Assembly: GCA_000091205.1 (NCBI GenBank)
Contig: AP006498.2
Source: Cyanidioschyzon merolae
Lineage: Eukaryota
Length of the DNA: 64,000 nucleotides
Direction: 5' to 3' (one strand)
Part shown: piece after piece, positions 1,392-64,000 of the stretch
How the letters are laid out: every line of letters begins with the position of its first letter
How positions within the stretch are numbered: the stretch's first letter is position 1
Made by a program: the position numbers and the translations under genes
The notes under the pieces: generated by a model
Seen by the model: the letters and a program-made list of their open reading frames with translations, nothing else
Databases searched by the model: none
What the model was told of the DNA's origin: nothing

Positions 1392-1422
1392 ACCTGCGCC
1401 TGCGCCTGCGCCTGCGCCTGCC
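1392..1422. repeat. (GCCTGC)n microsatellite, 5 units
   Basis: cctgcgcctgcgcctgcgcctgcgcctgcc read directly. Confidence 0.9.
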
Positions 1423-1706
1423 GTGCCGCCCCGCCGATGACGCCGCCGTCGCTCGAGCGCCGCCCGACGTACGCCGAATCCCACGCTTTTCCGAGCGATC
1501 TCATTTTCTACCTGCACTGCGGTTTCTACTGGAAACTGTGGTAAGTCTGGGATCACAACTGGTTTCGGTCACCAGGGAAAGTGGTAGCGAACGGTCAGTG
1601 TCTCAGGGGTATCCTCCTTTTTGATATTCGGACGACGAGCCACAAGCTTCAAGACTGCAGGTGAGCTGGGGGCAACGCCGCTTCCATTCTGCACCAGGCA
1701 GTCTCG

Positions 1707-10641: not shown

Positions 10642-12700
10642 CGTTACGCTCAGAGTAGTGAATTCTGGGCTGCATGCACCAGCACGCGCAATTGTTGCTG
10701 TCTGCGTTATCGCAGGTAGCCTAGAGAAGGAAAGCATGCTGTCGAGTGGAGAAATGATCACGGAATGACATGATGCTTTCATTGCTAGCCTGAGGAAAAC
10801 CGCCGCATTTCTCCAAGTCAGTCATGCTGCGGTCAGCGGGCGGATGAGGCGCCCTTCTCCCAGTGCATGTCGTGAACGGTACGCACCCAGAACGGTACTT
10901 TTTCGGTTCTAGCTGCACGAAGCGCTCCTCGTCGAGCAACTCCGCTCCGTGTGTTCTCGAAAACATCGTACAAAATGAGCCACAGGATGTGCAGTCTCGG
11001 CACCGTCGACACGAACGGTGATGGAGAGACACGGATACTCGAGGCGAAAAACACGCTTCCCTGGGGCAGCATACTGCGTCGAAGGATACACTGTCGATTT
11101 CGTACGGAAACGGGAACGCGTATTCCACGAGATATACGGACGATCGTCTCTGTCGATGAGACTTCATTTGGGTGCGCTGCTGCATCTGTACGTATTTGGG
11201 CGGAGAGGCGCAAACCGCAGGTCGTCAAAGAGCGACGAGTGAGCAGTCGGATACGTCCAGCCCCAGCGGCGCCTCGAGCCGGTTGTCTACTGCACATCAC
11301 CGAACGGGCGGGATCGTTCAACACCTCATGCTTCGTCGTCAGACGCTGTGTGGCTTTTTCGTTCCAGATGCATTTGTGCCGCTTTCGGGAATCGCCGCTT
11401 TCCATCCCTCAAGGCGGTCATGGGGCACGCGGCTGATTCTGGCGTCGAGCTGCTCTTGGTGCGCGTCTATGCTCCGTAGGTCGGTGGTGTCGAAGGCGTG
11501 GGCGTTGCCGGTAGACGCCATCTCTACGCTCATGGATACATAGATGAGTCTTTCGCATCCGGTACACCGAACGATTCGGGATGTCACTCGGAATGCGCCC
11601 AGCTGCTTACGCTGGGAAGACTCGCCTAGCTCGCCGCGCCTTGATGCACCTCGCCAAGCAAGTATTCGCAGAACTTTCGGACGCTAGGCTACCAGCTGTC
11701 CAGAGACCTCTCGAATTTTTCGATCAAACTTCCCAGCGACAATGCAAGTTATGTTCGGGTGAGAGGCTGCACTGCGAACGCATTTTCTCCCAGGCTCGCT
11801 GCAGTCGGGCGTTGGACATGATGGACGGCAGGGGGCATACCGACACACATGGAATGACGGCATCAGGACCTGTTTCAAAGCTCTGAGCATCGTACTGAGC
11901 AAACGGGGATGCTTTGAACGCTCTGTATAGTCAGCACATTTGCGTGCAACTGGCACATGCGTACAATCTATGGTAAAAGTATATGAGAAAGCGATCGGAT
12001 CGCCGATTGTATCAGTTGCATGGACGCAAGAAACATGCATTCACCAACTTGTCCAATGAGTTGGGAAATGAAATGAACAATGATTAGCATCGACCGGTTT
12101 TAGTGTATGGAGCTGGACTTGCCGTAGCGCGCAGAGTACGCCCCGCTGGTGCCCCTCCGACAGCCCACATCGAGTACGGGTAGCAATTCTGAACAACTCC
12201 CATCGATGCATTCATGACGACAGAAACGCATCTCGAGCAAGATTGCATGAGGAAACAGGTAGAGGATAAGAGCGTGAATAGAGCCGGATGCATGAGATGG
12301 TGTACTGCAAGGTGAACGAAAGTCAAATGGCGAGGTAATCGACGGTGAGCGACTTGCTATGTTCTGATTCGTCATGCAACCATGCCCGCAAACACTCTCT
12401 GCACTGCTACTTGCATGACGCGATCGATATGCAGCGAAATGTGTTGTGCTTGCCAGGCTTCCGGCAGCTTTGCGTTGAACGAACTTTCTAGGATATCGTT
12501 TAGTGCTCAGTATGAGCATAGCGCTGACAAGTCGCAGACTTTCGATGGCAAAAATCAGTGGCACTGCATCGAACGACTGGCTTCTATCCTGGTGCAAGCC
12601 AGTTGTGTGGTACGCTTCAGCAGTTCCTCAATGCTACAGCGCCGTGTGTATCCACCGGAAGCAGTTTTCCTGGCCAATTAGAAAGCGATCATAGTGTTCC
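10642..12700. mobile_element. Degenerate ~2-kb repeat element, copy 1 (IS630/Tc1-mariner-like DDE transposase remnants, tentative)
   Basis: 10642-11569 is ~98% identical to 18222-19149. The adjoining 11570-12700 aligns at lower identity with 19150-20640, giving the same segment order and orientation at both loci. Plus-strand frames contain DDE-transposase-like strings: IVSVDETSFG...RIWAERRKPQVVKERR, ...AGCLLHITERAGSFNTSCFVV, and LPAVQRPLEFFDQT (LPASRISLKFFDQT in copy 2). Several frameshifts are present, so this is a dead copy. Confidence 0.4.
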
Positions 12701-17021: not shown

Positions 17022-18221
17022 TCGTCTCTCTTGAGTAGGGAGCGCTGCCCCAGCGGATCTGGCGGTTTGAATTGAGGAGCGCGGGGTACGGGCGCGCCTC
17101 CTGCGCTGCGCTGCTGCGCGCCTTCCGATTGATGGGGTAGCAGATCAAAGGCTGATTGATGAATGCATGGTGGAGCACTTTGTATTTGAACGGGTCGTAG
17201 ATGAATGAATGAATGGTTTTTTGCAGAGCACTCTGTACTTCTTTCAGTAATAGGTAATTCGTTGATTTATCTGTAGAGATCTTTTTAGATGGAACGTCCT
17301 ACGATCCGGACACGTGCGCTAGCTACGTGCGCCTTGCACCCCTGCAGTGACGTGTACCGAGCTGACGTCTGCACAGCTCGAGGGCAATGCATGCTCCACG
17401 TGACTTCAAAGATAGGGGTCTATACCCAGGCCTCGATCTGGTCGCCGCACTCCTCGAATGTATCGGTCCGCGTTGGCAGTCTCGCGTGCGCAGAATTCCA
17501 GCGCGAAGCCTGACGACGAGTTCCGGCCTCACGCCGGGCGAACGGTGCCTCGCACCGACGTCCGCAGGTATACACTGTAAGGCTGTTCCGTCTCTAGATG
17601 GCGACCGCAGCAGCGCTTCCCCGCTGTAGCAAGCGTGCCGAATGCGCTTGGCACCAGGACGATCGCTCGATTGAACTGGCTTAGATTCTTCGGAGAAATC
17701 CTGCGTTGGAGATTATGGTGCATAGAGGCGGATGCGGAAGGACAGAGACTCTTTTGTTGCTCTCCGGTAGCGTTTGCGTATCTGGAGAAATCGCGGGTAG
17801 ACTCATTGATCTTGTACGGTGAAGAATTGTGCAATACCCGGTGGGATTCAGCTTTAGGATAATGCACCGTGACGGGTGCCCGGTGCAACGCCATGCATAT
17901 CGGTCCCATGCGCGATGATGCTTTTGGATGACTACGAGTCGCCGCTGCCGTCATTTTTGACCGAGTCGAGGTTGCGCAAGGATCAGCAGTTCGCCGTTTG
18001 GAATAGAGCGCTCCATGAATACAATCCGATGGATGCGATATCGACAGAAACACTCTATCAAGTATAACCGTTGTCATTACATTTGCTTCATTCGCGGAAC
18101 CTATTGAAATAGACTTGCAATCGGTTGTGGCGCATCACTGCCGTGAATGGCAACAAAAAAAGCAGCCGGCTCGGTTACAGCCGAGCGGCTGTGTTGCATG
18201 GTGTAATCAGCACACCGGGGC

Positions 18222-20640
18222 GTTACGCTCAGAGTAGTGAATTCTGGGATGCATGCACCAGCACGCGCAATTGTTGCTGTCTGCGTTATCGCAGGTATCC
18301 TAGAGAAGGAAAGCATGCTGTCGAGTGGAGAAATGATCGCGGAATGACATGATGCTTTCATTGCTAGCCTGAGGAAAACCGCCGCATTTCTCCAAGTCAG
18401 TCATGCTGCGGTCAGCGGGCGGATGAGGCGCCCTTCTCCCAGTGCATGTCGTGAACGGTACGCACCCAGAACGGTACTTTTTCGGTTCTAGCTGCACGAA
18501 GCGCTCCTCGTCGAGCAACTCCGCTCCGTGTGTTCTCGAAAACATCGTACAAAACGAGCCACAGGATGTGCAGTCTCGGCACCGTCGACACGAACGGTGA
18601 TGGAGAGACACGGATACTCGAGGCGAAAAACACGCTTCCCTGGGGCAGCATACAGCGTCGAAGGATACACTGTCGATTTCGTACGGAAACGGGAACGCGT
18701 ATTCCACGAGATATATGGACGATCGTCTCTGTCGATGAGACTTCGTTTGGGTGCGCTGCTGCATCTGTACGTATTTGGGCGGAGAGGCGCAAACCGCAGG
18801 TCGTCAAAGAGCGACGAGTGAGCAGTCGGATACGTCCAGCCCCGGCGGCGCCTCGAGCCGGTTGTCTACTGCACATCACCGAACGGGCGGGATCGTTCAA
18901 CACCTCATGCTTCGTCGTCAGACGCTGTGTGGCTTTTTCGTTCCAGATGCATTTGTGCCGCTTTCGGGAATCGCCGCTTTCCATCCCTCAAGGCGGTCAA
19001 GGGGCACGCGGCTGATTCTGGCGTCGAGCTGCTCTAGGTGCGCGTCTATGCTCCGTAGGTCGGTGGTGTCGAAGGCGTGGGCGTTGCCGGTAGACGCCAT
19101 CTCTACGCTCATGGATACATTGATGAGTCTTTCGCATCCGGTGCACCGCTTTTCGACAAGTCGCCCTCAGTATTCACCAGCCATGAACTGCTCTGTTGCG
19201 GCTCTGCTCAATCGAGGTAGGGAGCGGAAAGGTGCGCCTTTATCAGTAAGCATGCTCGCGACGGAGAAGGTGACGAAAACGTACTTGAGGAATATTCCAT
19301 AGATGTATGCAAAAGGCGAGTTTCCCACACATCGTCGACCTAGTGAGTCTCATTCTCCAGGTAAAGCGGATTCGTCATACATCGCCCACATGTATGTTAT
19401 GCCGCATGTTCAACAGAAGAAAATGAAGAAACCACCGGGCAGAGAGCAGAAGGAACAGAAAGCAGGAACAGTCACAGTAGAAAAATTGGTCCTAAACTAT
19501 TACCGAGCCCTGTCATCCCGGACACACCAACAGGGAGAATCTATCAAAAAGCGAGATGCAGGGCGTCATGGAGGATCGCGTAGCTTCCTACTCGAGGGGG
19601 GCTCTTCCGGCTTCTCCCGCCTTGACGAACCTCGCAAATCGACTGTTTGTGAGCATCCGGGATGCAGGGCTGCCAGCTTCCCGAATTTCTCTGAAATTTT
19701 TCGATCAAACCTTCTTGCGAAAGCACAACGAATGCCCGGGACGGAAGATGCAAGACGACCTGGCTATGGGGTCAGAGCATTGTGCACACGCTTCCCAGAA
19801 TACATGGAGACGTCGCAGCGCAACGCTCGAGATCGAAATGAACCAAAGCCCAGGTGCCAAAAAGGCATCAAGACTATCTCAAAACCCTAAACGATACACG
19901 GGTCAATGTGGAGCGCCGCAGGAACGGCACCCTGTGAGCGCGGTTCCCGCGTCTCACTGACCGCGGAATGTACGGACTGATAGAAAGGATTCTATACTTC
20001 AGAGATTAGATGAGCATCCAGAATGACTCATGCCAGCGCCCTTCGGACGGAGTGCATAAAACCGTGCTGGGGTCGCCACTGGATTCAATGGCACGGAGGC
20101 AGGAAGCGCATGTTCGCCAGCTTGTTCAACGAACTGGAAAAGGGACTAACGGGTACGCCGCGTCGTTTCATTACAGACTCTGGCGCTGGACGTACCGTAG
20201 CGCACGCGGACGCTGCACGCATCGACCTTCGACGAAAGCGTACACAGCGCGAGAATCGATTCTGTACGATTCCCATCGATGTGTTCAGGACGACGTGCAC
20301 ATAGCATGAGCACGACTGCACGCCAAGTCAAGTATAAAGGAATGGAACATGGAGCCCGATGCACGACATGGGGTATAGAGAGATGCCCGAACGCCAGATG
20401 GCGCTGCAATCGAAAGGCGAGAAGCTTGCTATGGTAGGATGGCACCAGCACGAATGCCTGCATGCACCCTCTGCACCGAGACTTGAACGCCGTGATCACC
20501 ATCAGGAAATGCGTTGTGCTTCCGGCGCGTCCAGTGTGTTCGTGTGAAGCGAATTCCAAAGGAAATCGTTTATAACTCACTTTGGGCACTGAGGTCCAAC
20601 GCTGCAGACTTGCCATCAAAATAGCACTCAGTGGCTACCA
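18222..20640. mobile_element. Degenerate ~2.4-kb repeat element, copy 2 (same family as 10642-12700)
   Basis: 18222-19149 is ~98% identical to 10642-11569. Downstream 19150-20640 is diverged but colinear with 11570-12700 (conserved aatttttcgatcaaac block and FFDQT-encoding region; 20085-20321 and 12084-12330 encode related peptides). Immediately upstream lies a perfect-stem hairpin gcagccggctcgg-ttaca-gccgagcggctg preceded by an A-run (18150-18186). Confidence 0.4.
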
Positions 20641-31159: not shown

Positions 31160-32588
31160 TTGGCATCCAAAGAGCTAGCAGTCCTGCTGTACCTGGGTTG
31201 TCGCGGATGCGCAGGGCCCCAGATCATCATGACGCTCTCTGGTCGGACGAAGGGCACGCTAGTGCACGGGACGCTGGAGAGGACCACGCTTGCTAACTCT
31301 GTAAGATAATCACAACTGGTGCAGCGCAAGTCCCATGGGATGATGTGGAGCTCACGGCGTTCTTTTCGGTGATGATCGCTAGTTTGCCTCAGGTGAATCA
31401 AGGATTTTATATGAGCAACAAGCTAGCCAAAGATATTCGCATGAAAAATGGTGCATCTGTGGGGCCCGGCTCTTGTCTGCGCCTTTCGAACTATGGAACG
31501 GTGCTCGTCGCCAATGCGCTTGTCATCACACTGCAGAATCATGAAAAGCCGCTTCTCGCAAGTAGCGAGCGATGGATGACGCTACACGCACCCGACCTCC
31601 GGAGACGGCATGCGCATTGCACGACTGACGTTTCGTAACGCTGCCACAAGAGCTAAAGCGGCTACACAACGATACGGGAATCCTTGCGTCTTTTTTTGGT
31701 GTGCTTGAAGGCTGTTTACTGTTACCAGCGGATCTCCGATTGCACGATGGGTCTCGGTCTCCGGCGAAAAGCATCCGCGATTCCACAGCATGCCCTCAAG
31801 TTCTGCGAGCCAGCACCTCACAGACTTTTCCCTGGGGACATTAGCCAGTACGTATGATCCGCTGGATGCCGTACCGACCGAACGTGCCGAGAATATTGGC
31901 TACTGCGCTGCTGGGTACACCTCGCAGAGACAGAACGACATTGTCGTTCACTGTTGCATGCTCGCTTGAGACGTCCATATTCCAGCACGGGGTCAGGTAT
32001 CCGGGTAGCAGGGTATTCGGGTGCAGCATGCCGGCACGATCGCCTGCCGCAGGACTCTGCTGCAACATACCTCCTGGGCGGCATGCATGCATGCAATGAC
32101 GATTCCTGTACTCGTGCCGCATTCAAACGGAACACTGAACAGCCCGCTCTGTTCCTGACTTTTGCTTTGTCTTGAAATGTATTTGAGATGGACAGCTTGG
32201 ACATTTGAATTGCAGCAATATGGCTCTACGGATTCCTGCGTGATTTTTGAATAGTTGGTTGTTTTTTCGAAGTGGTTCTTTCTCGACGCTTTGCCGCCAG
32301 AATTCGTTATGTCACCGGAATCAGGATGATTCGCGACACCTTGTCACAAGGGTACGCGAAAGAACTCATATCCGAATAGATTTCGTATGTGCAACCATTC
32401 TTGCTTCTCCTTTTGTTCTGTGCGGCATGCACAAAACACGCATGCTTCAAGTTTCCCATCTTTCTATTTCAGGGCAATTCTTCAGTGCAACAGTTCGCTT
32501 CGTTGAATCGACGGCGGAACAAAACATGATGTCGTCGTCACCTGGCGCGTTCATATGTTTGATCAGTGAACCAAAAGAATCTCCAAAT

Positions 32589-33096
32589 GACCATGTGGGG
32601 TTACATGAATACCCACGCGCAGACGCCTCCCTACGTTCTTTGACGGGCCGCCTGCTATCGGTTTGAGGTTATCGAGGCACATTTCGAGCCTGGGAGGCTG
32701 CCCCTCGAAGTTAGATAGGCGCAGCTCCGCGGATCTCGTTTTCAGCACCACAAATCGTCTGATACTGATGGCGTCGATGAAGACTCTGTTCATGAACTCC
32801 TTGCGTTTATTGCCTCTGGCTGGACTCACCAGTGCAAATACTGCCAGAACGCGTGCCTTTCTTGCCACTACAGTCTTGTGATCTTCCCGTCGGGCAAAAA
32901 TCTTTTCAAGTCGATCTCTCATCGACCTCCTCTTCTTCGTCATTACTAGCTCTTCTTCGCTCGATGGTCGAAGAGAAGATGATTCTCTTCGTTTATTTGC
33001 CCGGAAGCTAGCGATGACGGTGCTCCAGGTTCCCCGACTTCCATGCCCACAACTTTCCCTGGGGTTGTGCATTTCTGAAAATGAACGCACTTCTCT
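32589..33096 (-). mobile_element. Internally deleted (~0.5 kb, MITE-like) derivative A of the TnpB/Fanzor-like element
   Basis: Shares both termini with the full-length element 56691-58958: RE-proximal block accatgtggggttacatg...cagacgcctccc and LE-proximal block ...gaaaatgaacgcacttc. Retains the RuvC-III-encoding segment (KEFMNRVFIDAISIRR) in an open 175-codon ORF (32563-33090) that spans the deletion junction. Confidence 0.6.
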
Positions 33097-36393: not shown

Positions 36394-38838
36394 GGTTTTG
36401 GGAATGAGCATTGACCATTTGATCATTCCATTTGGATGCTGCTGCGGAAATCAAGCAGTTTCGAACGTACTCGAAGCACTTCCTGATTCGTACTCGTACC
36501 GATAAATTTTGGACCGCCGCTACAAGACGATCGACGCCTTGAGCTCGGATCGCGCTGTTGCGTTGCTTTGCGTGGAAGTATGCAAAGCCGCCGGGATGTT
36601 TCCTGGGGCGAAAAGCGTCTTTATTGGGAACGCGCTAGGTATGCCGTGTGTTGGTCGAAGCATTCGTCGAATCTATTCACCTGTACATCGCAGCATCGCG
36701 CTTTGGTTTCATATTACGGTCTTGGTGCACTTCGGGATTTTCTACCGGGTTACTTTGGGCATGGCATTCTCGTTGACGGTCTGTATATGCAGCATATGGC
36801 ACCTGGTTCCAATTGGACTCGAGGCCCATGGCGAAGGCGCACGGACACATTCCGGAGTATGATGAGGCATCGCCGGTGCACTCAACTGCTGGTGACCTTC
36901 AGGAGGATCCACAGGTGCCCTCATTGAGATGAAAACGTTCGTCGACTTGAAGAACATCATTGAGCAGCGGCGTTTTCCGAATGGTTTCAATCTATGCCAA
37001 CAACTGCAATCGAGACGGTCACTGATTTGAAGCGGTGCCATCGAGGCGACAAGAGCCAAAGACCGCTGGTCGACGGTGCGAATCGATATCCGTGTAGATG
37101 CCGGCAGCGTTCAGCGTCGCCCAAGAGCACCTGCAACCAGACTGACCGGTGTATCCGTTCGGCGGGAGAATTTGCCCGCTTCACTACGACCGGTCAGGTC
37201 GCTGGACGGTAACCTGTGTTCGGTCTATGCTCCCACTGTCGCAGCTGGCAGAATGGGTGCATCTGCGCCCCCTCGGATTGCTGCGGGGCGTCGGCGCTGG
37301 CTTCGTCCATCTTTTGCAGGATATCTGCGGGCGCATCAGGGTGCTTCGCACGTGCGCCGCTCTTTACGGGCAGGCCCAGATGTGGCTTCTCCTGCGCGGT
37401 CTTCTGAGCCATCACGCGTCGATGTGGTCCTTTCCAGCTTACAAGACTGCTTCGTGGATGCGTCTGCAACGCGAGGAAATCCCCGGTTCCCGTTCTGCAC
37501 GACACGTCTCACGACGAACTGAACAAATTGTTCACGCTGGTCAGCGCCGGTAAGCGAACGAACGACTTGGCGCAGGCCTGGTGTCACAGTGCGCTCACTC
37601 CAGAGAATATCCGCGAGTCCGGTCGCAATATCCATCGCCATCAAGTAGTTTCGATTCGCATTCATTGGATCATCGAGATCTTCCGATTCTTGATGGTCCA
37701 GATTCATTGGCCTCGCGGAGCTTTCAGCCACCAAGTCCGTCGTTTGCGCTGCCCTAGGGCAAGCGCTTTGCGAATGACCGCGTTTTACAGCCGAATGTAG
37801 TAGCCCTGAAGCAGGCGAGGGTCTGCTTGGGGAAGGCTCGTGGTTCATCTGGGATTGTCTTCTTGCTTCGTAACTGCCTGAAAGAAAGCTGAGGTCTCGC
37901 TTCACGGCTTTTCCGAGACTCTGGCGCGTAGAAATTTCCAGGGGATTGAAACCACGAAAGAAAGTCTCTGTTCCGTGATACTTGCACCGACGGACAGCGT
38001 GCCGCAGCACGCATGTATGGCGACACGGATGCCACCTGGGACACGTGTACGACCTGGGACGCTGATGCGCACGATGCGCCCTCACTTGAACTGTCCGTGA
38101 CATGCTTGCACGCAATCGCCAGCGCAGATATTGTTCTCTTCAAGGGGTATACTAACTGCATCTGGCAAGGTGTTGCGGATACATGATTGCTGCTGCTGGT
38201 GATCTGGAACGAAACCTCACTTGTTGCGCAGAAGCACCGACTTTTCGCTTGCTTTATACCGGGCTTACCCACGAGACCACAGGCCCGATTGATCTTGCTG
38301 CCCTGCGGGGGTATGGTGTCAGTCGCAGGTGTCGAACGGAGACACGACGCTGTTTTGCTGCTTTGACGGGCGTCGGCTCGATGCGTGCATGACGCGACAC
38401 GCAACATTGACGTGTGCGGGCATCTGCGGCCGTATGGGCGCTTCTTCTTGTACGACTTGCCGTCAGCGCCCTGACTAGGCCTCGGGAACGACCACGGTGC
38501 TCGGATGACCCCGACTACGAGACCATCCGGTGCATCTACTTCACCGCATCTGCTAGGTGATAGACGACAACCTTCGCTCTGGCGCCGTTCCAGTCCAAGG
38601 GCGTCTGCGGGCTGCAAGCCAGTGGATGTATTGGGCGCCAGCGGCGGAATGCGCAACTCGAACGCTATGCTGCCTCCACTGTCGAGAAGGAAATGAGGCA
38701 CCACGTCGCTTGTGCATGCTCACGTGAGTACCGTGAACCATCCAAGAGCCAGAAGACGCGCGCTGGACACGCTGCCAGCACGGAATGCATCACATGATAT
38801 TCAGTAAGGTGATCTGTGAAACGAAAAATGTTCTACGA

Positions 38839-39353
38839 TCATTTAGGGTACATTGATATCCGGCCGCAGATGCCACCCGGCCTTTTTTGACCGGCCGACT
38901 CCTACCGGGTTCATTTTCCCCTTGTACATTTCGACTCTGAGACGCTTCCCCACGATTTTGGATCTCGTCAGCTCCTCGGGTCTCGCCTTCGGCACCACAC
39001 ATCGTCTGATACTGATGGCGGCGTTGAAGTCCCGGTTCACGAACTCCATGCGTTTATTGCCCCGGGTTTAACTCACGAGTGCGAGGATTCATCGAACACG
39101 TGCCCTCAGTGCGACTACAGTCTCTTCTTCGCCTAGTCGGGGAAGCACTTTTTCTCGCGTACCTACCCTCGTTTTCTTCTTCCTGTTCGTCATTTGCTCT
39201 TCTTCGCTCGATAGTCGTCAAGCAGGGCATTTTTCGTTTCGCTTTTGTCGAACCCGGCGATGGCGGGCCTCCAGGATACCCCGGCTACCATATCCATAAC
39301 TTTTCCGTAGATTTTTTAAAAGTAAGCACACTTCGAACCTGTCAGCTATACAC
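38839..39353 (-). mobile_element. Internally deleted (~0.5 kb) derivative B of the TnpB/Fanzor-like element
   Basis: RE-proximal block catttagggtacattg...gcagatgccaccc and LE-proximal block ...ccatatccataacttttcc...cagctatacac. Encodes MEFVNRDFNAAISIRRCVVPKARPEELTRSK (RuvC-III motif; ORF 38843-39049). A TGA lies at the position where the full-length copy has GGA. Confidence 0.6.
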
Positions 39354-41189
39354 CGCGAAGAAGCACTTGATGACACGCACCTGGCAGAGGAACGCAATAC
39401 GGGCGAAGGACGATGATCACGGCTGTGCAACTGTGCTTGCTTGGTGCACTTCTGTGTGCACTGGGAGCGTTTGCGAGACCAGAGGACAAGCGTTGAACCC
39501 GTCGATTCTACTCCGGCAAAACAACCAGCACATGTGTTCCGAATCATCGGATTCCGTTCGTGGCTACCGAGTTATTCTGCGCGATGTTCGGGCGGCTGGA
39601 GCGACTAGACGACATCGCCTTTTGCTGGGTGTCTGCTTCCAGCATGGAGCATCCCGGGGCTCAACGTACCGTTCAGCGAATAGATGCGCGCGCCGCAGAG
39701 CTTCCATATGCTACTGGTGACTCGGCAGTTGCGTGACGATGCTTTAATGCTTCAAAGATCCGTATCTTGCATGCCGACTCGCATCTATTGTCGCTGAATG
39801 GTCCAGCGAAGAGGACGTAGCGAACAGGTCCCTCAGCATCGACAAATTCGACTTCGCACAGTGCGGAGTATTTCTCAGTGCTGAACTTTGTCCCTGGTGC
39901 TGCTGTTATCGACTGGACGACCATAATTTCCTCCGCCCGAGGGCGACGCAGCATTAGAAATCCTTTTTCCATGCCCAGACCAGAACAAATAGCGAAATCG
40001 ACACTTGTCAGCGTTTCAGGCGCATGAACCTGCATGGGTCTTACTCGCTTTCAAAGCGGTTTCATTGAAATCTAGAACGCCATTGCTGGAGTAATGCCAG
40101 CCGAATTATTTGAAGAAAAAAAGAAACCCCGCGCAAGCAAAGCTTTCTCTTCGCTAGAACTGGTCGGGAAAGAGACGTGACACGCGGTGCGAAACCAGGA
40201 AACACTTTTTGATGATGTAATCATTGGTGCAGTTGTCCCGTCTCCTCAAATGATGGTGCGACCTCCGACCTTCGAAAGCTCAGAAGCGCCGGACAGTCTC
40301 TAATTCATTGCCCGATTCAGTTCACCTATCGATCAGGAGTGTTCCACTGCTCCAAAGCATTCGGCCCGAACGGCACTCGACGGATGCAGCCGTTGCTTAA
40401 GAACTTGAGTGCGCCGAACTGGACGATACGTTGCTCCACCCGCGTCACTTGAAAAGGCACACTGAACTGCTCGGTCACTTCGCGCTCCACGATCTTTCCC
40501 GAACTTTTTTTTATTGATGCACAACCTCGATGTTCGAAGTGCGGCAATATGGGGCTGAGGATCCGTACGTAGCCTTAGCATTCTCGGTCGTCTTTTTGGA
40601 GTGGCTTCTTCGGCTCTACGCCGCTCAATTTCGTTCTGTCATCGATTCCAAGGTGTTTCGGGATGCAGTCGACCAAAAGGTTCATGACATGACCGACGCC
40701 ATCATCGAATCCATAGGTACAAGCCTCCATTCTTCTCCTCTTGCATACGTTGATCATGCGCAAATCACGCATTCTTCACGTTTTCAACCCGTGTGTCTCA
40801 AGGCAAGTCGTGAATGCAGCGATTCGTGCCTCTGGGTTGATGACGAGAAATACTCGACGTCATTGCTTGACAACTTCATCTCAAGCTCATGAAGAAACTT
40901 CACTGGACTTGTCACGTCACGTAATCGATTCCGTTCGAAAGACAACTACGCATCTCTTTGTGTCCATTGACCGCATAACACGCGAAGCCGGACTGATACT
41001 TCTCGCTGTATATGTCCCGAGACGCTCCCGACTCTTCTGTCTGTATGGAAAGGGGTCTTGGACTCGGATTCTCGTCATTGCAGCGATCGCGTCTATTAGG
41101 ACGTGTGTAACCAGGTTGCACGAAGAGATCGTAAACGGATCAGGAGTTCTCGACTTGATTTTCGCACTGGATTTTCCATTTACTACTTG

Positions 41190-53446: not shown

Positions 53447-54003
53447 GACTTTTGGCTCGGCTTCCGCTGACATGGACAAAGGCGTGTGCGCGCTTCTCCT
53501 CTGCCGGCATCGTTTTTCTCTCTGGTACCTCTGCCTGGGAAGATGTCGATCTCGCGTGCCGCTCGAGCTTCGTTGTCGGCAACTGAAGAATGCTCATGAC
53601 AGCGTTCAAGTTCCGGTTACGCAGCTTCCGGCGCTTGCAGATGCATATCATGCACACACAAAAGCTGCTCCCTACGCTCCGCTTGTCGTTTTGCACCCGC
53701 TTTGCATGCGGCCTCGGTGCACATTTCGCGGCAGCGACAGCTTGCTGTGGTCGGATCTTCGCGTGTGGCCACCAGAGCACCTCCTCAACGCCTTTCTCGA
53801 TTTTTCAGCACCAGGTGCCGTATCCTAAGACCACGGGCTTCCTCGGGGACGATCACTTTGGTTCGTACGCTTTCTGCGGCACGCGCAAGTGCACGCTCTT
53901 CGATACGATAGAGGGTGTGTAGAACGCGATATTGTCCATGATGAAACGAGGACTCGAAGGAAAAGCAAGGCTCGAGCAAAACTCGGGAAACTTCGACCCG
54001 TGT
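53447..54003. repeat. 555-bp direct repeat, copy 1 (~99% identical to 61887-62446)
   Basis: Alignment by eye starts at ggctcggcttccgctgacatggacaaaggcgtgtgcgc and ends at ...ctcgggaaacttcga(c/t)ccgtgta, with only a few mismatches. Lies in the S18-GET3 intergenic region. Encoded peptides are unrecognisable. Confidence 0.6.
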
Positions 54004-54756
54004 AGTCCCAGTTCATCGCAACCGCGCTGCACGAACCGCGAAACTCGACGCTGTCCACCCAAGCCCATAATCAATAGCGAGAACGAGTTGCACCAAATCA
54101 GTTTCGCACGCACACACTATTCTCGCAGCAGCTACGCTGCGTGTAGCGATAGGTGCAGCACCTGCTCTGTGATGCAGGTACTTGCACGGAGACCTGCGGC
54201 AGCGTGCACTAGAGCGCCCTTTCCAATCGCGTTACCCATTGCCCATGACGCTTTACCCATTGCGTGATATGCTTTACAGGTTGCGTTCAACGTCTAACGC
54301 GAGGTGCGGCCTCGTGCCTGCTTCCGCGCTGGGTGCTGCGCGCGCGCGCGCGCGTTTCGGCGCTGCAGCGGCATGGCAGGCCGCGGCGCGTCAACACGTT
54401 GCGCGACTCGAAGCTGCGTTCTGCTCAGGGCGCTCACGCTGTGTACTCCTGCAAGCGGATGCCGTGTGAGATGAAATCTAGCACTACTGGATTTTGCTTC
54501 ACTTGTGCGGGTAATGGACGTTGGGAAGGCACGTTCTACGGTAGCCGTGAGCCTGTCTCCAAAGTGTGGCACTGTGGGAGCGGTGCTGGGTGTCCACGCC
54601 ACTCGATGCGCCTTCCAGGGGCGCAAGCGTCACGCCGCGCACTCCGTTAAGCAGATGATCGTGGCCAGTGGCTGGTCATGAAGAAACCGTCGTCGACCAA
54701 GGTAACGGTGCCGTCCACGTGCCGGAGGCAGCAGCACTCGGCAGCGCGAGGAGCGA

Positions 54757-56289
54757 GTGGTACGCAGCGAGCAAGCGCTGGCGCCGCAGTCTACGATACC
54801 GCGTTGGCGCTCGCAGGCGAATCGCATCGGTCAGGGTCTTGTTGTGTTCCTAGCTGTGAGTTATGTGCTTGAGAAGGCGGTTCCACTGATGCAGTGGCTG
54901 GTGATGCGTCCCAAGAACAAGGTCGGTTCTAGAGCCGGCGTTACTGCGACGAACGTCGGGGCTACTGCTCCAGCTCCGGCTGCAGCTCCGGGAGCCTCTG
55001 GTCTGGACGCAATGGCACGCACCGGCGCTTCTAGTTCGAGCAGCGTTCAGAGGCAGTCATCCTGGACACCACCCGCGACTGCGCAGTGGTCGTCAGCCGT
55101 TGATCTTGTTGAACAGCGCACGAGTCGAAAGATCACGATTATCGGCGGCAAAGGCGGCGTCGGCAAGTCGACCATGGCTGCCGCCACCGCGGTACGGTTT
55201 GCGGACCAAGGTGAGACAACGCTGATTATCAGTACTGACCCTGCACATTCGTTGTCGGATTCCTTCGATCAGGATGTAAGTGGCGGTGCCCCGGTTCCAG
55301 TGCTTGCTGTGGACAACCTCTATGCCATGGAGATCAACCCTGAGCAGATGAAAACGTCTTTGAGAATGCTTCCGGATTCCGAGAAGCTTCAGATGATGAG
55401 CGGTATGGATATGGGCCTGGAAGACTTTGATTCATTGTTCGAGACGCTACCGCCAGGTTTCGATGAAGCGATCGCCCTCGTTGAAATCATGAAACTGATC
55501 CAGGGCGATCCGGCTTTTGCCAAGTTTGATCGGATCGTCATCGATACCGCGCCAACTGGACATACGCTCCGCCTCTTATCGCTGCCGGACTTTTTGGACT
55601 CGTTTCTCGGCAAGATCTTGACCATGAAGAACAAGCTCGGCAACGTTATGAACCAGTTTAAGGGCATGTTCAGTGGAGGCAATGATCAGCAAACCTTGGA
55701 TTCCGCCGATATAGATGAGCTCAAACGGAGCATGAACATGGTTCGCGCTCTGCTGCGCGATCCAAACCAGACAGAGTTTATCGTGGCAACCATCCCGACC
55801 ATGATGAGCGTGGCCGAAAGCGAACGCCTGGTGAAGGATCTCTCCCGGGAAAAGATTCCCTGTCGCCATATTTTTGTGAATATGGTACAGCCGCCAAATG
55901 ATTCATGCAGTTTCTGCAAAGCCCGTCGACGCGAACATGAGACCAATTACAAGTACATCGAACGCGTATTCCGAGACTTTAAGGTTGTTCCGGTCAAGTA
56001 TTTTGAACGCGAAGTGCGGGGCGCCCCAGCTCTTCGGGCGATGGCTTCGCAGTTGTTTGCAGATGACTCGTCTTCGGAACCGGGAACCGCAGCATCAACC
56101 GAGGACACATCGCGCCAAACGACAGAGACGCCTACGATTGCGCCACGCGCGGCCACAGAAGCAAAAGGCGAGCAAGTTGGTGGACGCGGGAACGGCGCAG
56201 GTGCGCACCATATCGCTGCATCGGGTGAGTCTGCGAACAACAACGCGCCGGCAGCGAATACCGCCACACAGCGAAGCTCAGAGCAATGA
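54757..56289 (+). CDS. GET3: GET3/ArsA-family ATPase (tail-anchored protein insertion ATPase) with N-terminal extension
   Basis: Deviant Walker A GGKGGVGKSTMAAATAVRFADQG followed by ISTDPAHSLSDSF. Switch II/A-loop DTAPTGHTLRLLSLPDFL. GET3-type CxxC pair CSFCKAR. Listed start is GTG; first ATG at 54889. Hydrophobic N-terminal segment and Ala/Gln-rich C-terminal tail. Confidence 0.8.
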   Translation: MVRSEQALAPQSTIPRWRSQANRIGQGLVVFLAVSYVLEKAVPLMQWLVMRPKNKVGSRAGVTATNVGATAPAPAAAPGASGLDAMARTGASSSSSVQRQSSWTPPATAQWSSAVDLVEQRTSRKITIIGGKGGVGKSTMAAATAVRFADQGETTLIISTDPAHSLSDSFDQDVSGGAPVPVLAVDNLYAMEINPEQMKTSLRMLPDSEKLQMMSGMDMGLEDFDSLFETLPPGFDEAIALVEIMKLIQGDPAFAKFDRIVIDTAPTGHTLRLLSLPDFLDSFLGKILTMKNKLGNVMNQFKGMFSGGNDQQTLDSADIDELKRSMNMVRALLRDPNQTEFIVATIPTMMSVAESERLVKDLSREKIPCRHIFVNMVQPPNDSCSFCKARRREHETNYKYIERVFRDFKVVPVKYFEREVRGAPALRAMASQLFADDSSSEPGTAASTEDTSRQTTETPTIAPRAATEAKGEQVGGRGNGAGAHHIAASGESANNNAPAANTATQRSSEQ

Positions 56290-56690
56290 TTGCACCGGAG
56301 GCAGTAGCTGCTCGCGGGGGTCAGGACGTACCTGCTGTTCAAAGCGCCTGGCTACCGACGCGCACTATTTGCTTTCGATTATCATAGAGCGGTGCAACGA
56401 TGGCGCTGCTGCGCTCGCTGCGTGGCAATTATTTCCGTTTCTCTCATGTGCCGTGTAGCTTTCGGATGTGCCTCACGTAAGCGCTTCTACGTTGCGAGCT
56501 AAACGTTCTTCATGCTTTGTGGATCAAAGAATTGGCCCATACTCGCCAAAATTCGCTCACAAAGGGGTTGGCTTTTCGGAGCGTTGCCTGCACGTGATCA
56601 GAGCTCGTGCACCGAATGGACATCATTGATCTCTCGGGCGTCGTGGCTATTTCATTTCCATCAGTAGACGTGGAGCGAAAACTTTTCGCG

Positions 56691-56950
56691 ACCATGTAGG
56701 GTACATGGATACCGACGTGCAGACGCCTCCCGGCGTTTTTGGATAGGCCCCCAGTTATCGATTTCAGTTTCTACGTGTACACTTCAACATCTAGAGGCTG
56801 CCCTACGAATTTAGATCGCGTCAGCTCCTCGGGTCTGTTCTCCAGGATCGCAAATCTCCTGATATGGATTGCGGCGTTGAAGTCTCGGTTCACGAACTCC
56901 ATGCGTTTCTTGCTGCTTCATGAACTCATCAATGCAAGGAGTCCTCGGAC
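56691..56950 (-). ncRNA. Candidate omega-RNA (guide RNA scaffold) region at the 3'/right end of the TnpB/Fanzor-like element (inferred, not demonstrated)
   Basis: This ~250-bp RE-proximal block is the part conserved at nucleotide level in all four copies (56.7, 32.6, 38.8, 63.2 kb) and is retained by the deletion derivatives. It overlaps the 3' end of the nuclease ORF and ends in a terminal hairpin, as expected for TnpB/Fanzor omega RNAs by analogy. Confidence 0.3.
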
Positions 56951-58896
56951 TCGTGCCCTGCGTTCCATTTCCTGTTCTGTCAGCTCTCCGCGGTTTTCGA
57001 TTTCCTCAACACGCCGCTGTATGTTCTCCATCTCGACCTTCTGAAGTGTACACCCCAGTTCGTGGTGCACACACGCGATGTTCGGAACTCACCTATCGGT
57101 TTTGTGATATAACGCTGTGCACACTCCTTGTACGCTCATGTCGTTGGAGCGGGTATGCACCCTTTTATGGACGCCCAGCGCCCTGCTCCGTTGCCAACTA
57201 CGAGCCTGTGACTCTCGACCTCCTTCAAGGCGCTCAACTCATGGAAAATATCGGTGAATGCCCGCTGCTTCCCACAGTATAGATTCATACGCCGACGAGC
57301 CCACCTGGGCTTAATATATTCTTTCCACAGCGCATCCCAATGAGCAGCTTGAGTTTTCATGAATTCCCGAAAAGCTTCAAGGTTCGCTCCACGGCTCGTA
57401 ACCTGGCTGATCGCTTCCAGGTGCTCATTCATTCCTGCATTCCATGCCTCAATGTTCTTCCTTGCATTCATTATTCCCGACTCTCGGTAGTATCTCGCTC
57501 TCGCGAACCGCAAAAGACGCATATCTTTCTGACGTAAGTTACCGTCAATGCCATCTTCCGTACGCTTGGGTACTGCGATGGATACGATTTTCGTCTTTCC
57601 AGGGTCCGCGCTGACGACAGTGTCGTTCTCCTGCACCTCCTGCGTGGCAGGATCCGCCTCTTTGTTTTCTGCATCCTTCGTCACGGGCGAAGCGGAGGAC
57701 GGAACAAGACGATCCGCCTTCAAGCGCCGATAGTACACACACGTTGATACTTCATCGCTTTCGATGATCCCTGTGAATACTTTTTTCTTGCGCATTTTGA
57801 GACGATTGAAGTCGAAGATATTCTTCCAGTATGTCTCCCGGTTTTCACCCATGAACTCCTTCCTGTTTACATCGACCTCTGGACTGATCTCCTTTATGAT
57901 GCCGTAAAAGACTCTGTAGTCGATCGTCACAAAATGCGACTAGGCGTCGCGTGCCGGAACGACATCGAAGCACTCCTCCAGAAGCGCAGCCTTCGGTTTC
58001 AACGACTCGTCATTTTTTCCCACACCCAACTCCATCTCCGCCTTGCGTTCGAATTCTCGATTCAGGAATACGAAATAATGCAGGATGAGGGGATGACATC
58101 TTTTTTCATCTTGTCTCATATCTGATAGCTTATCTGCTGGATTGACCAGCCCAAAAACCGCACGATGCTCTTGAGTAGCCGCACGGATCCGATAAGCTTC
58201 ATTCGTGCTCTCTTTCGACGCCCTCTTCTCGGTGGAATCGATCTCCTGTTCATGATGGCAATCTTTCGTGATGCCATTGAGGATGGCCCGTATCGATTCG
58301 CGAGAAGGATCCGGGCAGAGTGCAAACATGGAGCGCATCATGAGGCGTTTCAGGTTCAAGGTCGAATGGTTCTTCGGGTTCTTGATGTACGTCATCGCCC
58401 CGTGGCCGTAAATATCCGCGCCACCGCCGTATCTAGTGCAGTTGAAGCGGTATTCGACGTAGTTTTCTTGGACGGCGTGCACTCGCTCATTTCTTCTCGA
58501 CGCCTCCCCTGTGCCATGCATCGGGTGACGAGTAAAGGTCTTGTTCGAAAATTCTTCCCGAACCTCGACTCTTCCCATGTGCGTCACGTCGCGACGCATC
58601 TCCTTTTCGAAAGCATCAGCCCTGACGAGTGCGTTATAAGAATACTCAAGGAGTACGACTCGACACGGTTTCTGATAGCCTCTCGCAAATTTCACCTGTA
58701 GGGATGCTAAATTTCGCGTAGAAGACAGGCTTTCACATTTATCTCGTCGTACTGTCGTCTTTCGTGGAGCTTTTGACGTCGGGCCTCCTGCTTCTACTTC
58801 TTGGTCAGCTCCTGTTCCTCTAAACTCGGTTTTGTTTTTCGTTTTCTTTTTCTCGGTAGCCCGCGACTCCTGCCCTCCAGGATCCTCAACTTGCAT
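56771..58896 (-). pseudogene. TnpB/Fanzor-like nuclease ORF interrupted by three in-frame stop codons (TAG 57940-57942, TGA 57136-57138, TGA 56917-56919), no frameshifts
   Basis: Track ORFs 57940-58896 and 57136-57930 and the short terminal ORF (atg at 56901) are all in one frame. The listed M of 57136-57930 is actually GTG (V) in the continuous frame. Stops are consistent with CAG->TAG, CGA/TGG->TGA transitions. Copy A (32563-33090) reads through the position of the last stop. Confidence 0.55.
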
Positions 58897-59772
58897 TCCT
58901 GTAGCTTTACTTATTTATTTTTGAAAACGAACGCATTTCGAATACGTCGGCTGTAAACTAAGATACAGCACTTGAATGCACTAATTTGAGGGTTGGAACA
59001 GAATTCGATTGAAAGACTCTACGATGACGTCAACGCAAACACAACCTATAAGTTAGATCAACCAGCTGATGATTAGGATCGTGTTTCGCTTCGACGGCGA
59101 GTTGCGCGTCATATCTCAATGGTGGCAGATATGGAGGTGCGCGTATCTGCCGCGCTGTAGAAAAAGAGGAACAGGAACGAACCATTAACGAGCTACGGGA
59201 TCACGATCTCTATCCGCCTTCACGGTAAGCGTTGAAAGAGGAAAAGCGTTCCGCATTTTCGAAAGTCTGCTACCTGGGCGTAAAGTCCCGCGAGCCGGAC
59301 GATTCTGCAAGATTTGGGCTTGATTCGCCTCCCAGTGGCGGGTACGATAGTGAGATCTGAGTCGCTCGTCCGAACGCAGCTCATTCTGAGGCTAGAAGTG
59401 GGTAGAATGCGCCTGGGCGTCGCCCTGGTTGCGGTTGTATCCCATCCCATGGGTTCGCACTGCCGTAGGCAGCACGTCTGCTTACACAGATTACAGGACC
59501 CGAAAATGGTTACATACTCGGACTCCGTATGAGGTGAAGCGTGCGTCGAGCCGATGCCTTCAGGGCTGTGGCAAAGCCGTTCTGTCTCCGTGTTGCATCC
59601 GCTCCAGCGGTTTAGGCGCTATTGCAGACGCTTGCGGCAGATGTTCAGCACAAGATCGACCGTATAAGGCGCCCAGTATATCCGAGAAGCAGTATGGGTT
59701 ATGGAACTTGGAGGAAACGCGTGAAATGATGGATGCTTCCGCGCGCGTTGATACCAAGCGCCCAGTCCGGGC

Positions 59773-60756
59773 ATGCTGGCATATGGACACGTTTTGTCGA
59801 CTTTGAAGTCGGACCATACCTGTATAAAATGGACATCATGGATCTCAAGGGCGGCGTCGCCGTTTACTGCGACCGCCTCTTTGCGATCCGTCACCGTTTC
59901 GTTTCCATCTCCGTGCAGAGCAGCACTGTTCGCGAACATGGCAGGGATTGGATCAGGGTTCGTTCCGACGTATACGTTACGTAGCGCTCGTGGCAGTTTC
60001 GGCGAAACAAAGTCTTTATCGCAACCGGCGAGAACCCGGGGACACCAGCGGTTAACTTTCGTGTCGAACGCGCGCCGGCGTTGCCAACTGGTCGCGAGTG
60101 CAGCCGAGGAGCGCCCGGAACGATCTCAAACGCAGAGCGAAATAGACTTTGCGAAACTTCAATTTTCGGAAGGTAATGAGTTGAGTGGTATGGTGTTCAA
60201 ACCGGATGCGGAATTAGCAAAGGCTGGGCCCGATGAGTCCCGTGCGCGACTCGCATACTCGAATGCATGCGAGGAGGCGATTAACAGCCAGATTAACGTG
60301 GAGTTCACCGCCTTTTACGTATACTATGCTTTGCACGCATACTTTGATCGGGATACGGTCGCGCTCCCAGGTTTTGCGGACTATTTCCGAAAGCAAGCGG
60401 AGGAGGAACGCGACCACGCTGTGAAACTCATGCACTATCAAAACAAACGCGGTGGGCGCGTTCACCTGAAGCCGATCGCGGTTCCAGCATTGCACTTCCA
60501 TAACGAGGAGAACTCGGATGCGATTTATGCAATGGAACTTGCGTTGCAACTTGAGAAATACGTGCAAATGAAGCTCATGGAAGTTTGGAAAGTGGCTGAT
60601 CGCGAGCGCGATGCGAATATGACGGATTTTATCGAGGATTTCCTCGACATGCAAGTCGAATCGATCAAAGAGATTTCAGATTATGTTGCTCAGTTGAAAC
60701 GTGTTGGAACTGGTCATGGCGTGTATCACTTTGATCGAGTGCTCGCTGACAAGTGA
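59773..60756 (+). CDS. Ferritin (plant/algal type) with long N-terminal extension (transit + extension peptide?)
   Basis: Ferritin core [59 protein letters not shown]...[53 protein letters not shown] at 59773; alternative ATG (MAGIGSGF) ~54 codons downstream. Stop TGA. Confidence 0.85.
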
Positions 60757-61886: not shown

Positions 61887-62446
61887 ATATAGTTCGGCTC
61901 GGCTTCCGCTGACATGGACAAAGGCGTGTGCGCGCTTCTCCTCTGCCGGCATCGTTTTTCTCTCTGGTACCTCTGCCTGGGAAGATGTCGATCTCGCGTG
62001 CCGCTCGAGCTTCGTTGTCGGCAACTGAAGAATGCTCATGACAGCGTTCAAGTTCCGGTTACGCAGCTTCCGGCGCTTGCAGATGCATATCATGCACACA
62101 CAAAAGCTGCTCCCTACGCTTCGCTTGTCGTTTTGCACCCGCTTTGCATGCGGCCTCGGTGCACATTTCGCGGCAGCGACAGCTTGCTGTGGTCGGATCT
62201 TCGCGTGTGGCCACCAGAGCACCTCCTCAACGCCTTTCTCGATTTTTCAGCACCAGGTGCCGTATCCCAAGACCACGGGCTTCCTCGGGGACGATCACTT
62301 TGGTTCGTACGCTTTCTGCGGCACGCGCAAGTGCACGCTCTTCGATACGATAGAGGGTGTGTAGAACGCGATATTGTCCATGATGAAACGAGGACTCGAA
62401 GGAAAAGCAAGGCTCGAGCAAAACTCGGGAAACTTCGATCCGTGTA
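61887..62446. repeat. 555-bp direct repeat, copy 2 (~99% identical to 53447-54003)
   Basis: See copy 1. Located ~1.1 kb downstream of the ferritin gene and ~0.75 kb before derivative D. Confidence 0.6.
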
Positions 62447-63195: not shown

Positions 63196-63720
63196 GGAAG
63201 GTAAGTATCAACAGCCTCGCGCAGGCGCCTCCCAACCTTTCTTTTACCGTCCCTCTACCATCCGGTTCAGTTTATCCCAGCACGCATCGACTCTGAGGGA
63301 CTGCTCCACAAAGTCGTATCGTCTCAGCTCATCTGGTCTCGTCTTCAGCACCACACATCCCCTGGTATTGATGACGGCATTGAAGCCCCGGCCCATGAAC
63401 GCCATGCGTTCATTGCCTTCGGTGGAACTCACTATTGCAAGGATTCCTCGGCCTCGTGCCCTCAGTGCGATTAGAGTCCCGTCATCGTCTCGTCATGCGA
63501 ACACCTTTTCTCGGATATCTCCCCTCCTTTCTCTTCTTCTTCATCATCATCACTTGCTCTTCTTCGCTCGAAAGTCTGCGACAATAGGATTTTTATCGTT
63601 CGGTTTGCCGCGCACCCCGCGGTTAGAGGCCCTCAGGATCCTCGACTTCCATATCCATACCTTTCCCTAACATTTTCTATTTCTTCAAATGAACGCATTT
63701 CGAATACACCTGCTATAAAC
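63196..63720 (-). mobile_element. Internally deleted (~0.5 kb) derivative D of the TnpB/Fanzor-like element
   Basis: RE block ...gcgcaggcgcctccc and LE block ...ccatatccatacctttccc...gaacgcatttcgaatacacctgctataaac, nearly identical to the full-length LE. Encodes MAFMGRGFNAVINTRGCVVLKTRPDEL (degenerate RuvC-III; ORF 63244-63432). Confidence 0.55.
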
Positions 63721-64000
63721 CGCGAAAAAGTATATGGCGATACGCACCTGGAGATGGAATACAATGCAAGTGAGCGACTGTAGGATCATTGCCATCGGGG
63801 CGTGATGAATGATTGGCATCGCAGGCAAGTGTCTCGGCCACGTGCCGCGCGGCTGTGCAGCCGCTGCTGACAAGTGTTCCGACTACGACAGCGTTTTGTG
63901 TAACCGAGTCTGGGCAAACTGTCTCTAAGTTCACGGAGCCATGTCTTCTTTGCCAAGCCAGGCAGGTTCTGGTGGTTCTGGAGGCGATCCTGGTGAGAGG

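Follow-up and report, generated by a model that had tools for sequence, protein, structure and literature searches.

[quoted passage not shown] The omega-RNAs of Fanzor1 proteins are 75–150 nt long, form two to four stem-loops, end at the RE and run 11–21 nt into the flank, and ORF-less 'ghost' loci of the Spu-1 transposon keep their omega-RNA and are functional (PMC10432273; PMC11423790). The role that Fanzor1 plays for its transposon in eukaryotes is a question that was left open by Saito and colleagues (2023; PMC10432273). In Cyanidioschyzon merolae, the transposon family CMe-1A was described as having ~150 copies, each ~80% identical to the consensus, and as being without TIRs, with its TSDs and class left undetermined (Bao and Jurka, 2013, Mob DNA 4:12; PMC3627910); the supplementary files of that paper give the CMe-1 protein and a 3169-bp CMe-1A consensus from C. 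merolae. Known already, then, are the transposon and its Fanzor1 in this genome (2013), as well as omega-RNAs at Fanzor REs and ghost loci (2023–2024), and our literature search found no paper describing an omega-RNA for C. merolae. The finding reported here mainly re-identifies this catalogued transposon and marks a region of interest for RNA-seq.

The window (that is, the whole 64,000-nucleotide stretch of DNA that was analysed) has a GC content of ~55% and carries long, intron-free genes. Within it, positions ~56653–59799 on the minus strand are occupied by a full-length but dead copy of CMe-1A, a Fanzor1 transposon family; we call this copy c3. It is bracketed by two host genes, a ferritin gene (59938–60756) whose product is identical to BAM81845.1 of C. 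merolae strain 10D, and an ORF for an ArsA/GET3-type ATPase (54757–56289) whose product is identical to BAM81844.1 of the same strain. By blastn against the published consensus, consensus positions 65–3092 align with window positions 59738–56711 at 79.5% identity over 3042 nt, and an identity of ~80% fits the published description of the family. The aligned 5' terminus of c3 (CGACAAAACG) lies at 59799. Its 3' end falls at ~56653 (± 10 nt), as placed by the limit of homology among seven copies and by an abutting host direct repeat, which meets the element at 56652/56653; the length is thus ~3.15 kb. Ten orthologous metagenome contigs have identical broken ORFs, so the insertion must be old and fixed, and a search of these contigs for an empty site found none, c3 being carried by 10 out of 10.

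The host direct repeat around c3 is 38 nt long (window 56615–56652 and 59828–59865), with the sequence AATGGACATCAT.GATCTC..GGGCG.CGT.GC..TTT, and its two copies agree at 30 of the 36 positions that align. The left one sits directly against the 3' end inferred for the element, whereas 28 nt separate the right one from the consensus 5' terminus on its outer side. This repeat may have arisen as a long duplication of the target or by duplication of local host sequence. It is not a trait of the family, as a search for target-site duplications or flanking repeats around six other independent full-length copies found none. A larger repeat of 554 bp, 99% identical between its two copies (window 53451–54004 and 61893–62446, 8442 bp apart), encloses the ArsA, c3 and ferritin segment; it contains no convincing ORF and no tRNA, a tRNA scan having found zero. 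In one metagenome contig (L086), ferritin is joined directly to ArsA via a single copy of the 554-bp repeat, which points to either a tandem duplication or a loop in the assembly. The window holds a second recent repeat pair (10642–11569 and 18221–19148; 928 bp, 98.7% identity, 7579 bp apart), which is unrelated to CMe-1A, and also an isolated short CMe-1A fragment at 20472–20520 (consensus 2911–2959, 77.6% identity over 49 nt, E = 3e-4) that is perhaps a fifth, highly eroded remnant of the family.

The Fanzor1 pseudogene of c3 was delimited by three-frame translation and spans 56714–58896 on the minus strand, with its ATG at 58896. No intact ORF is left, as the reading frame is broken by four stops (following ...ARDA, ...APTT, ...LMSS and ...EVYT) and by a single frameshift near 57080. 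The codons for the RuvC residues D (ADPG), E (GEFRTS) and D (NRDFNAA) are still legible. In hot-spring metagenomes, a search with the reconstructed c3 protein recovered 39 relatives and a follow-up profile search 79, some of which carry PF07282. On the basis of profile matches, predicted fold and a conserved D-E-D triad, the c3 protein family is a true Fanzor1. When compared with the PDB, the single c3 sequence matched SpuFz1 at no better than E = 0.64 (phmmer) and a shallow profile (A4) matched nothing relevant, whereas a profile built from 78 homologs of the c3 ORF (A8) matched PpFz1 of Parasitella (9cf0; 6e-20), SpuFz1 of Spizellomyces (8gkh; 6.9e-15) and GtFz1 of Guillardia (9cer; 0.054). 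Within A8, D421 never varies, and conservation of E592 and D659 reaches at least 90%.

The predicted fold comes from an AF2 model of a homolog that is 36% identical to c3 (P0038) and not from c3 itself. Modelling from the 39-sequence alignment gave a pLDDT of 43, which became 89 after a second database search had deepened the alignment (pLDDT 89.1, pTM 0.86). This model matches the Fanzor1 fold (WED/REC/RuvC/TNB), and its top seven Foldseek matches in the PDB are all Fanzor1 structures (SpuFz1, PpFz1, GtFz1; E 5e-18 to 6e-16, TM 0.53–0.71), with Cas12f next in the ranking. Pfam searches with the reconstructed c3 pseudo-protein gave zero matches. For PF07282 (TNB / OrfB zinc-ribbon), family member P0001 reached E = 0.23, which is below the cut-off, and two distant homologs, P0071 and P0103, score above the gathering threshold (27.1 and 26.6 versus 26.3). 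In the zinc-ribbon region of the c3 family, HH..C..C replaces the canonical C4. The Fanzor1 ORF also contains acidic tandem repeats of ~30 aa (KHEE.KKEA.PATQ.VQDND.VV; residues ~390–490 of P0001) whose copy number is variable: some metagenome copies have 3–4 units, and c3 (~57600–57700) is ~150 nt shorter than their consensus.

Three further copies in the window are ghosts: c1 (32560–33093), c2 (38810–39398) and c4 (63207–63765), all on the minus strand. In each of them, consensus positions ~826–969 are joined to ~2790–3092, followed by a variant tail, and the three align mutually across the junction; in c1 the first segment covers consensus ~869–966. The same deletion junction occurs in the metagenome loci L031:5128–5612, L034:5050–4551 (minus strand) and L073:937–405 (minus strand), indicating a single deletion event and a single origin for all six. 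The initial annotation had noted that deletion derivatives keep exactly the 3' block of the element; they do retain this end, but as the product of one event rather than of three independent ones. The ghosts are one amplified non-autonomous family of ~550 bp that keeps both ends, much like the ghost loci of Spu-1. That it spread shows that the retained ends suffice for mobilization in trans, and nothing specific to RNA. The family is abundant, and in hot-spring metagenome contigs such ~550-bp ghosts adjoin unrelated full-length copies. The family differs from TE-N2_CMe, the derivative described in PMC3627910.

The block to which attention had been drawn (56691–56950, minus strand) straddles the end of the pseudogene: positions 56714–56950 are decayed coding remnant, and 56691–56713 are the start of the non-coding tail. 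About 190 of its 260 nt represent the Fanzor1 C-terminus, from the RuvC-III motif NRDFNAAI through GRRLHV. This remnant reads ...RARVRGLLALMSS-stop-SSKKRMEFVNRDFNAAIHIRR...GRRLHV, and the peptide quoted in the initial annotation is indeed its minus-strand reading (...ERRARVRGLLALMSS-stop-SSKKRMEFVNRDFNAAIHIRR...GRRLHVGIHVPYMV), with an in-frame stop between MSS and SSKK. The CMe-1 protein has the same architecture as the c3 protein and a corresponding end, ...GRRLHV(SWRRFV) (PMC3627910). In the intact protein the sequence continues through GRRLHVSWRRFV to the stop codon. The motif that encodes GRRLHV in intact copies (GGGAGGCGTCTGCACGTC; 56714–56731, minus strand) is the most widely shared one of the tail region, being found in all window copies, in the ghost copies and in 45 non-redundant metagenome tails drawn from 80 loci. 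Since intact ORFs read through it to GRRLHVSWRRFV and the stop, this motif (56731–56714) is coding sequence. Next to it, positions 56732–56749 (minus strand) are possibly the remnant of a stem-loop, CCGGUC-N6-GACUGG in the consensus, which was picked up as an RNAalifold helix (199–204/211–216) and by manual alignment comparison. By manual reading, the stem is broken in c3 and retained in c2 with pair-preserving changes, a signal that is confounded because the stretch is coding in intact copies.

Two perfect hairpins follow in the tail of c3. Hairpin 1 (56692–56708, minus strand; CCAUGUA-CCC-UACAUGG on the coding strand) has 7 bp, exactly as the initial annotation had placed it, and is a candidate omega-RNA stem-loop or cis-acting end structure. 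It had been taken for the terminal hairpin of the element, which instead extends past it to ~56653. Hairpin 2 (56675–56689, minus strand; GCGAAAA-G-UUUUCGC) is likewise the perfect palindrome that had been reported, but it lies inside the element and not in the flank, as it has homologous counterparts in c1, c2, c4 and three metagenome copies. In c1, c2, c4 and L034b the counterparts are imperfect, pairing only with coding-strand G-U wobbles and with the register off by one (manual reading). Homology among copies fades ~20–35 nt beyond this second palindrome. With the RE near 56653, a guide, if any, would occupy ~56633–56652 on the minus strand, here marked by position only as the 20 nt AAAUAGCCACGACGCCCGAG.

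The tail of c3 and the ghosts (~60 nt, 56653–56710) is different from, and shorter than, that of the published family. The alignment of c3 ends at consensus position 3092, the consensus 3' terminus (...CGTTTTTCTTTTGAAAGGCG) is missing from c3, and its tail gives no alignment to consensus 3093–3169. A consensus-type element runs ~77 nt beyond the GGGAGGCGTCTGCACGTC motif, and these nucleotides include a small hairpin across the stop codon (AGACG-N3-4-(C/T)GTCT), a GGCG...CGCC hairpin, and a terminal hairpin of 10–12 bp, at the end of which the published consensus stops exactly; counted over ~95 nt, the consensus-type tail has three to four hairpins. The variant tail of c3 and the ghosts thus points to a CMe-1A subfamily. 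An HMM of this tail found one further clear member among 81 loci, and blastn with a whole ghost then found three. The terminal hairpins of the subfamilies differ (CGTTCGA-CTT-TCGAACG versus CGTTTTTC-TTTC-GAAAGGCG or GAAAGACG or GAAAAACG); a terminal hairpin appears to have been kept across subfamilies through different sequences and registers, a pattern that is not statistically robust. At L013:653–787, the last ~50 nt of the tail are tandemly duplicated (...GGCGTT and then again TCCGCCACTACTGTACACGCCCGACGTCGTTCGAC....).

The termini were also considered with respect to the class of the transposon. Assignment to Helitron or Helitron2 was rejected, as the termini read CGATGAC... and ...GAAAGGCG, with neither 5'-TC nor 3'-CTRR and the 3' hairpin alone present. 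A cut-and-paste TIR transposon such as Spu-1 was rejected as well: a search with a 14-nt seed found no inverted repeat of 60 nt or longer in the window, and flanking repeats are also absent from six independent full-length copies. The 5' flanks of seven full-length copies (the one at window position 59799 and L018, L046, L055, L078, L080 and L074) end in pyrimidine runs (..ATTT, ..CTCTC, ..GTTTC, ..TTTTT), and their 3' flanks differ, though independent copies are few. By manual reading, a GACAA..CGTTT motif occurs both at the 5' terminus (CGATGACAAAACGTTTAC) and in the arm of the 3' terminal hairpin (GACAACGTTTTTC). The pyrimidine flanks and this shared motif are possible target/TAM and end-recognition signals. 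At loci L005–L081, full-length copies have either of two unrelated 5' modules on the upstream side of a common point that precedes the Fanzor ATG by ~650 nt; one module corresponds to TE-N2_CMe (consensus 1–635) and the other begins ...ATCGATCGGTGAGGCGTCTCGCGCGG. This suggests that the actual Fanzor unit has its start near consensus ~640 and that different partners have become attached to it.

As had been claimed, the block is present in four copies, c1–c4, all in the same orientation. Their pairwise identity is only 68–75% (for example, 75% over 293 nt between c2, 38816–39106, and c3, 56670–56959, and 73% over 249 nt between c1 and c3), which means that the copies are old. The further claim that the block is the best-conserved part of the element was not borne out. 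Identity of c3 to the family consensus is 0.72–0.91 along the ORF and 0.64–0.78 in the last 300 nt, so the block is conserved no better than the remaining ORF. Among six ghost copies, identity ranges over 0.59–0.79, peaks over the DFNAAI remnant and is lowest over the hairpin tail, at 0.59 and then 0.43. Third codon positions, which had been counted as part of that conservation, are instead the least conserved, with identities among c1–c4 of 0.736, 0.693 and 0.649 at codon positions 1, 2 and 3. That the block seems 'best conserved' is due mainly to the fact that all four copies have just two parts in common, of which it is one.

The hairpins were examined against several backgrounds. Perfect hairpins of at least 7 bp number 38 in the window versus 27 ± 5 in shuffles, with three adjacent pairs in 64 kb, and the two discussed here are perfect in c3 only. 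Hairpin 1 has 5–6 bp in c1 and is degenerate in c2 and c4; in L034b, 4 bp persist in the same register with two pairs altered on both sides, a manual reading that is not statistically robust. The region 56650–57000 (351 nt) folds no better than shuffles (z = -0.77). Over 34 tails the mean z-score is -0.99, and the c3 tail scores -1.9 with its antisense strand doing better at -2.65. In 29 of the 34 tails the coding strand folds more stably than its antisense, and G-U pairs recur in the predicted tail helices, neither observation being statistically robust. RNAalifold gave essentially no consensus for a mixed alignment of 49 sequences (-1.39 kcal/mol); for 30 consensus-type copies it did find helices, but the substitutions, in the coding part, mostly break pairs. 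Searches of Rfam at gathering and permissive thresholds returned no relevant match.

Structural covariation was absent; together with conservation explicable by the ancestry of the copies, its lack had been named in the initial annotation as one outcome that would count against the RNA reading. For the three-hairpin structure (22 pairs) in 34 non-redundant consensus-type tails, 79.3% of positions were paired, compared with 79.3 ± 0.5 in column shuffles, and the covariation score was 0.109 versus 0.114. This result speaks against a conserved RNA structure at the low power of the test. Since copies of a transposon decay neutrally and the subfamilies shift register, it is no strong refutation.

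How, then, should the 3' end of c3 be interpreted? Our preferred reading, to which we assign a probability of roughly 0.6, is that the block is an old, inactivated CMe-1A 3' end, the last ~80–130 nt of which most likely specified the omega-RNA scaffold of its ancestor. The likely scaffold would lie at about 56653–56760 and comprise the possible stem, the GGGAGGCGUCUGC motif and the two stem-loops. By analogy with the characterised systems, transcription would have followed the ORF strand through the right end and into ~15–20 nt of flank, giving an ancestral RNA from ~56760 to ~56633 on the minus strand that overlapped the end of the ORF. The flank portion would have acted as the guide, and Fanzor1 would have cut sites bearing that flank beside a TAM; the limits and fold of the RNA, like any TAM or guide, are proposed on the same analogy. 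The similarity of the block across the four copies reflects shared ancestry, and the short copies go back to a single internally deleted element that retained its two ends before it multiplied. Because the nuclease gene of c3 is dead, any RNA that c3 still made would depend for its action on an intact Fanzor1 encoded by another copy in the genome.

What the sequence itself establishes is which element this is, that its protein family is Fanzor1, how the end is built and that a ghost family exists; it offers no independent indication of a conserved RNA. The evidence for the omega-RNA reading is positional and by analogy: on the minus strand the ORF ends at ~56714 and the element at ~56653 (the RE), which matches the location of known omega-RNAs, and the ORF-less derivatives c1, c2, c4, L031, L034 and L073 retain the end carrying the candidate RNA. 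Also in its favour are the hairpins of the consensus-type tail and, without statistical robustness, the more stable coding-strand folds, the recurrent G-U pairs and the terminal hairpins of the subfamilies. Against it stand the missing covariation, the modest folding z-scores, the chance frequency of such hairpins, the low conservation of the tail in the ghosts, the mismatch between the c3 tail and the consensus tail, the lack of an Rfam match and the pseudogene state of c3. The original proposal of an omega-RNA at this position is partly supported: the gene is a true Fanzor1, and on the coding strand the block corresponds to its 3' end and to the RE, but the arguments that had been drawn from conservation, from the derivatives and from the hairpins do not bear the proposal out.

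The main rival, which we think rather unlikely and which would be compatible with an overlapping omega-RNA, is that the terminal hairpins are cis-acting DNA signals for a transposase acting in trans, as in IS200/IS605 or Helitron-type elements, and that ghosts keep the block because mobilization needs both ends. The ghost family did retain both ends and multiply, and CMe-1A is without TIRs, its TSDs and class being undetermined in PMC3627910. However, no transposase is known for the CMe-1A family, and the termini of Helitrons are absent from it. Similarly, the published consensus stops at its 3' side just where the 10–12 bp hairpin does, and a GACAA(AA)CGTTT-like motif is common to the 5' and 3' termini (manual reading), as might be expected of transposition signals; but the G-T pairs of the hairpins are A-C mismatches on the opposite strand, and these pairs, together with the greater stability of coding-strand folds in most tails, fit an RNA, or one particular DNA strand, better than they fit duplex signals.

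That the block has no selected function at all, being neutral coding wreckage with chance palindromes while any omega-RNA lies elsewhere or is long lost, we regard as quite improbable: identity to the consensus is even along the element, with no rise towards the 3' end, codon position 3 and the ghost tails are the least conserved, covariation is lacking in the 34 tails and perfect hairpins of the kind seen in c3 alone are frequent by chance, but divergent subfamilies have hairpins of different sequence in equivalent places, two adjacent 7-bp hairpins exactly at a transposon end are less likely than one, and no characterised TnpB or Fanzor places its guide RNA anywhere but at this end.

Beyond the ancestral scaffold of our preferred reading, c3 and the ghosts might still be transcribed through their REs, supplying a guide repertoire to the few intact CMe-1 Fanzor1s, so that one nuclease lineage would be served by two tail types, the consensus type with its 3–4 hairpins and the short two-hairpin type of c3 and the ghosts. 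We consider this unlikely. If it were true, red algae would gain their first described omega-RNA system, and with it a case of scaffold turnover inside a single Fanzor1 family, in an organism whose genetics are easy. More generally, if the RE tail encodes an omega-RNA, the two unrelated tails of the family would reveal the pace at which scaffolds are replaced, and the role of Fanzor1 for its transposon could be addressed in C. merolae as a tractable alga (haploid, with efficient homologous recombination, a small genome, and ~150 Fanzor1 copies plus ghosts).

Compared with the systems described so far, c3 is closest to CMe-1A (PMC3627910), with which it shares the genome, the lack of TIRs and a length of ~3.15 kb, and from which it differs in being a pseudogene and, like the ghosts, in its last ~60 nt, which depart from the consensus tail. 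In contrast to Spu-1, CMe-1A is without flanking inverted repeats, and no TA duplication was seen. The nucleases SpuFz1, PpFz1 and GtFz1 (PMC10432273; PMC11423790) are homologous to the c3 family, and the candidate RNA region likewise covers the 3' end of the ORF and the RE, in the orientation of the gene. This region is also similar to Fanzor1 omega-RNAs in size (~75–150 nt) and in having 2–4 stem-loops, and the ORF-less derivatives likewise keep their ends. The c3 ORF, however, runs almost to the RE, so the scaffold would overlap coding sequence, and the RNA region is likened to those of SpuFz1, PpFz1 and GtFz1 by position, size and number of stem-loops. Relative to the TnpB systems, the host of c3 is eukaryotic, its Fanzor1 is far larger, TnpA is absent and no pseudoknot was identified. 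Nonetheless, the reRNA or omega-RNA of TnpB in IS200/IS605 and IS607 elements (ISDra2, ISXfa1) spans the 3' end of the nuclease gene and the RE and extends ~16–17 nt into the flank, which is the same logic as that proposed here for the right end of c3.
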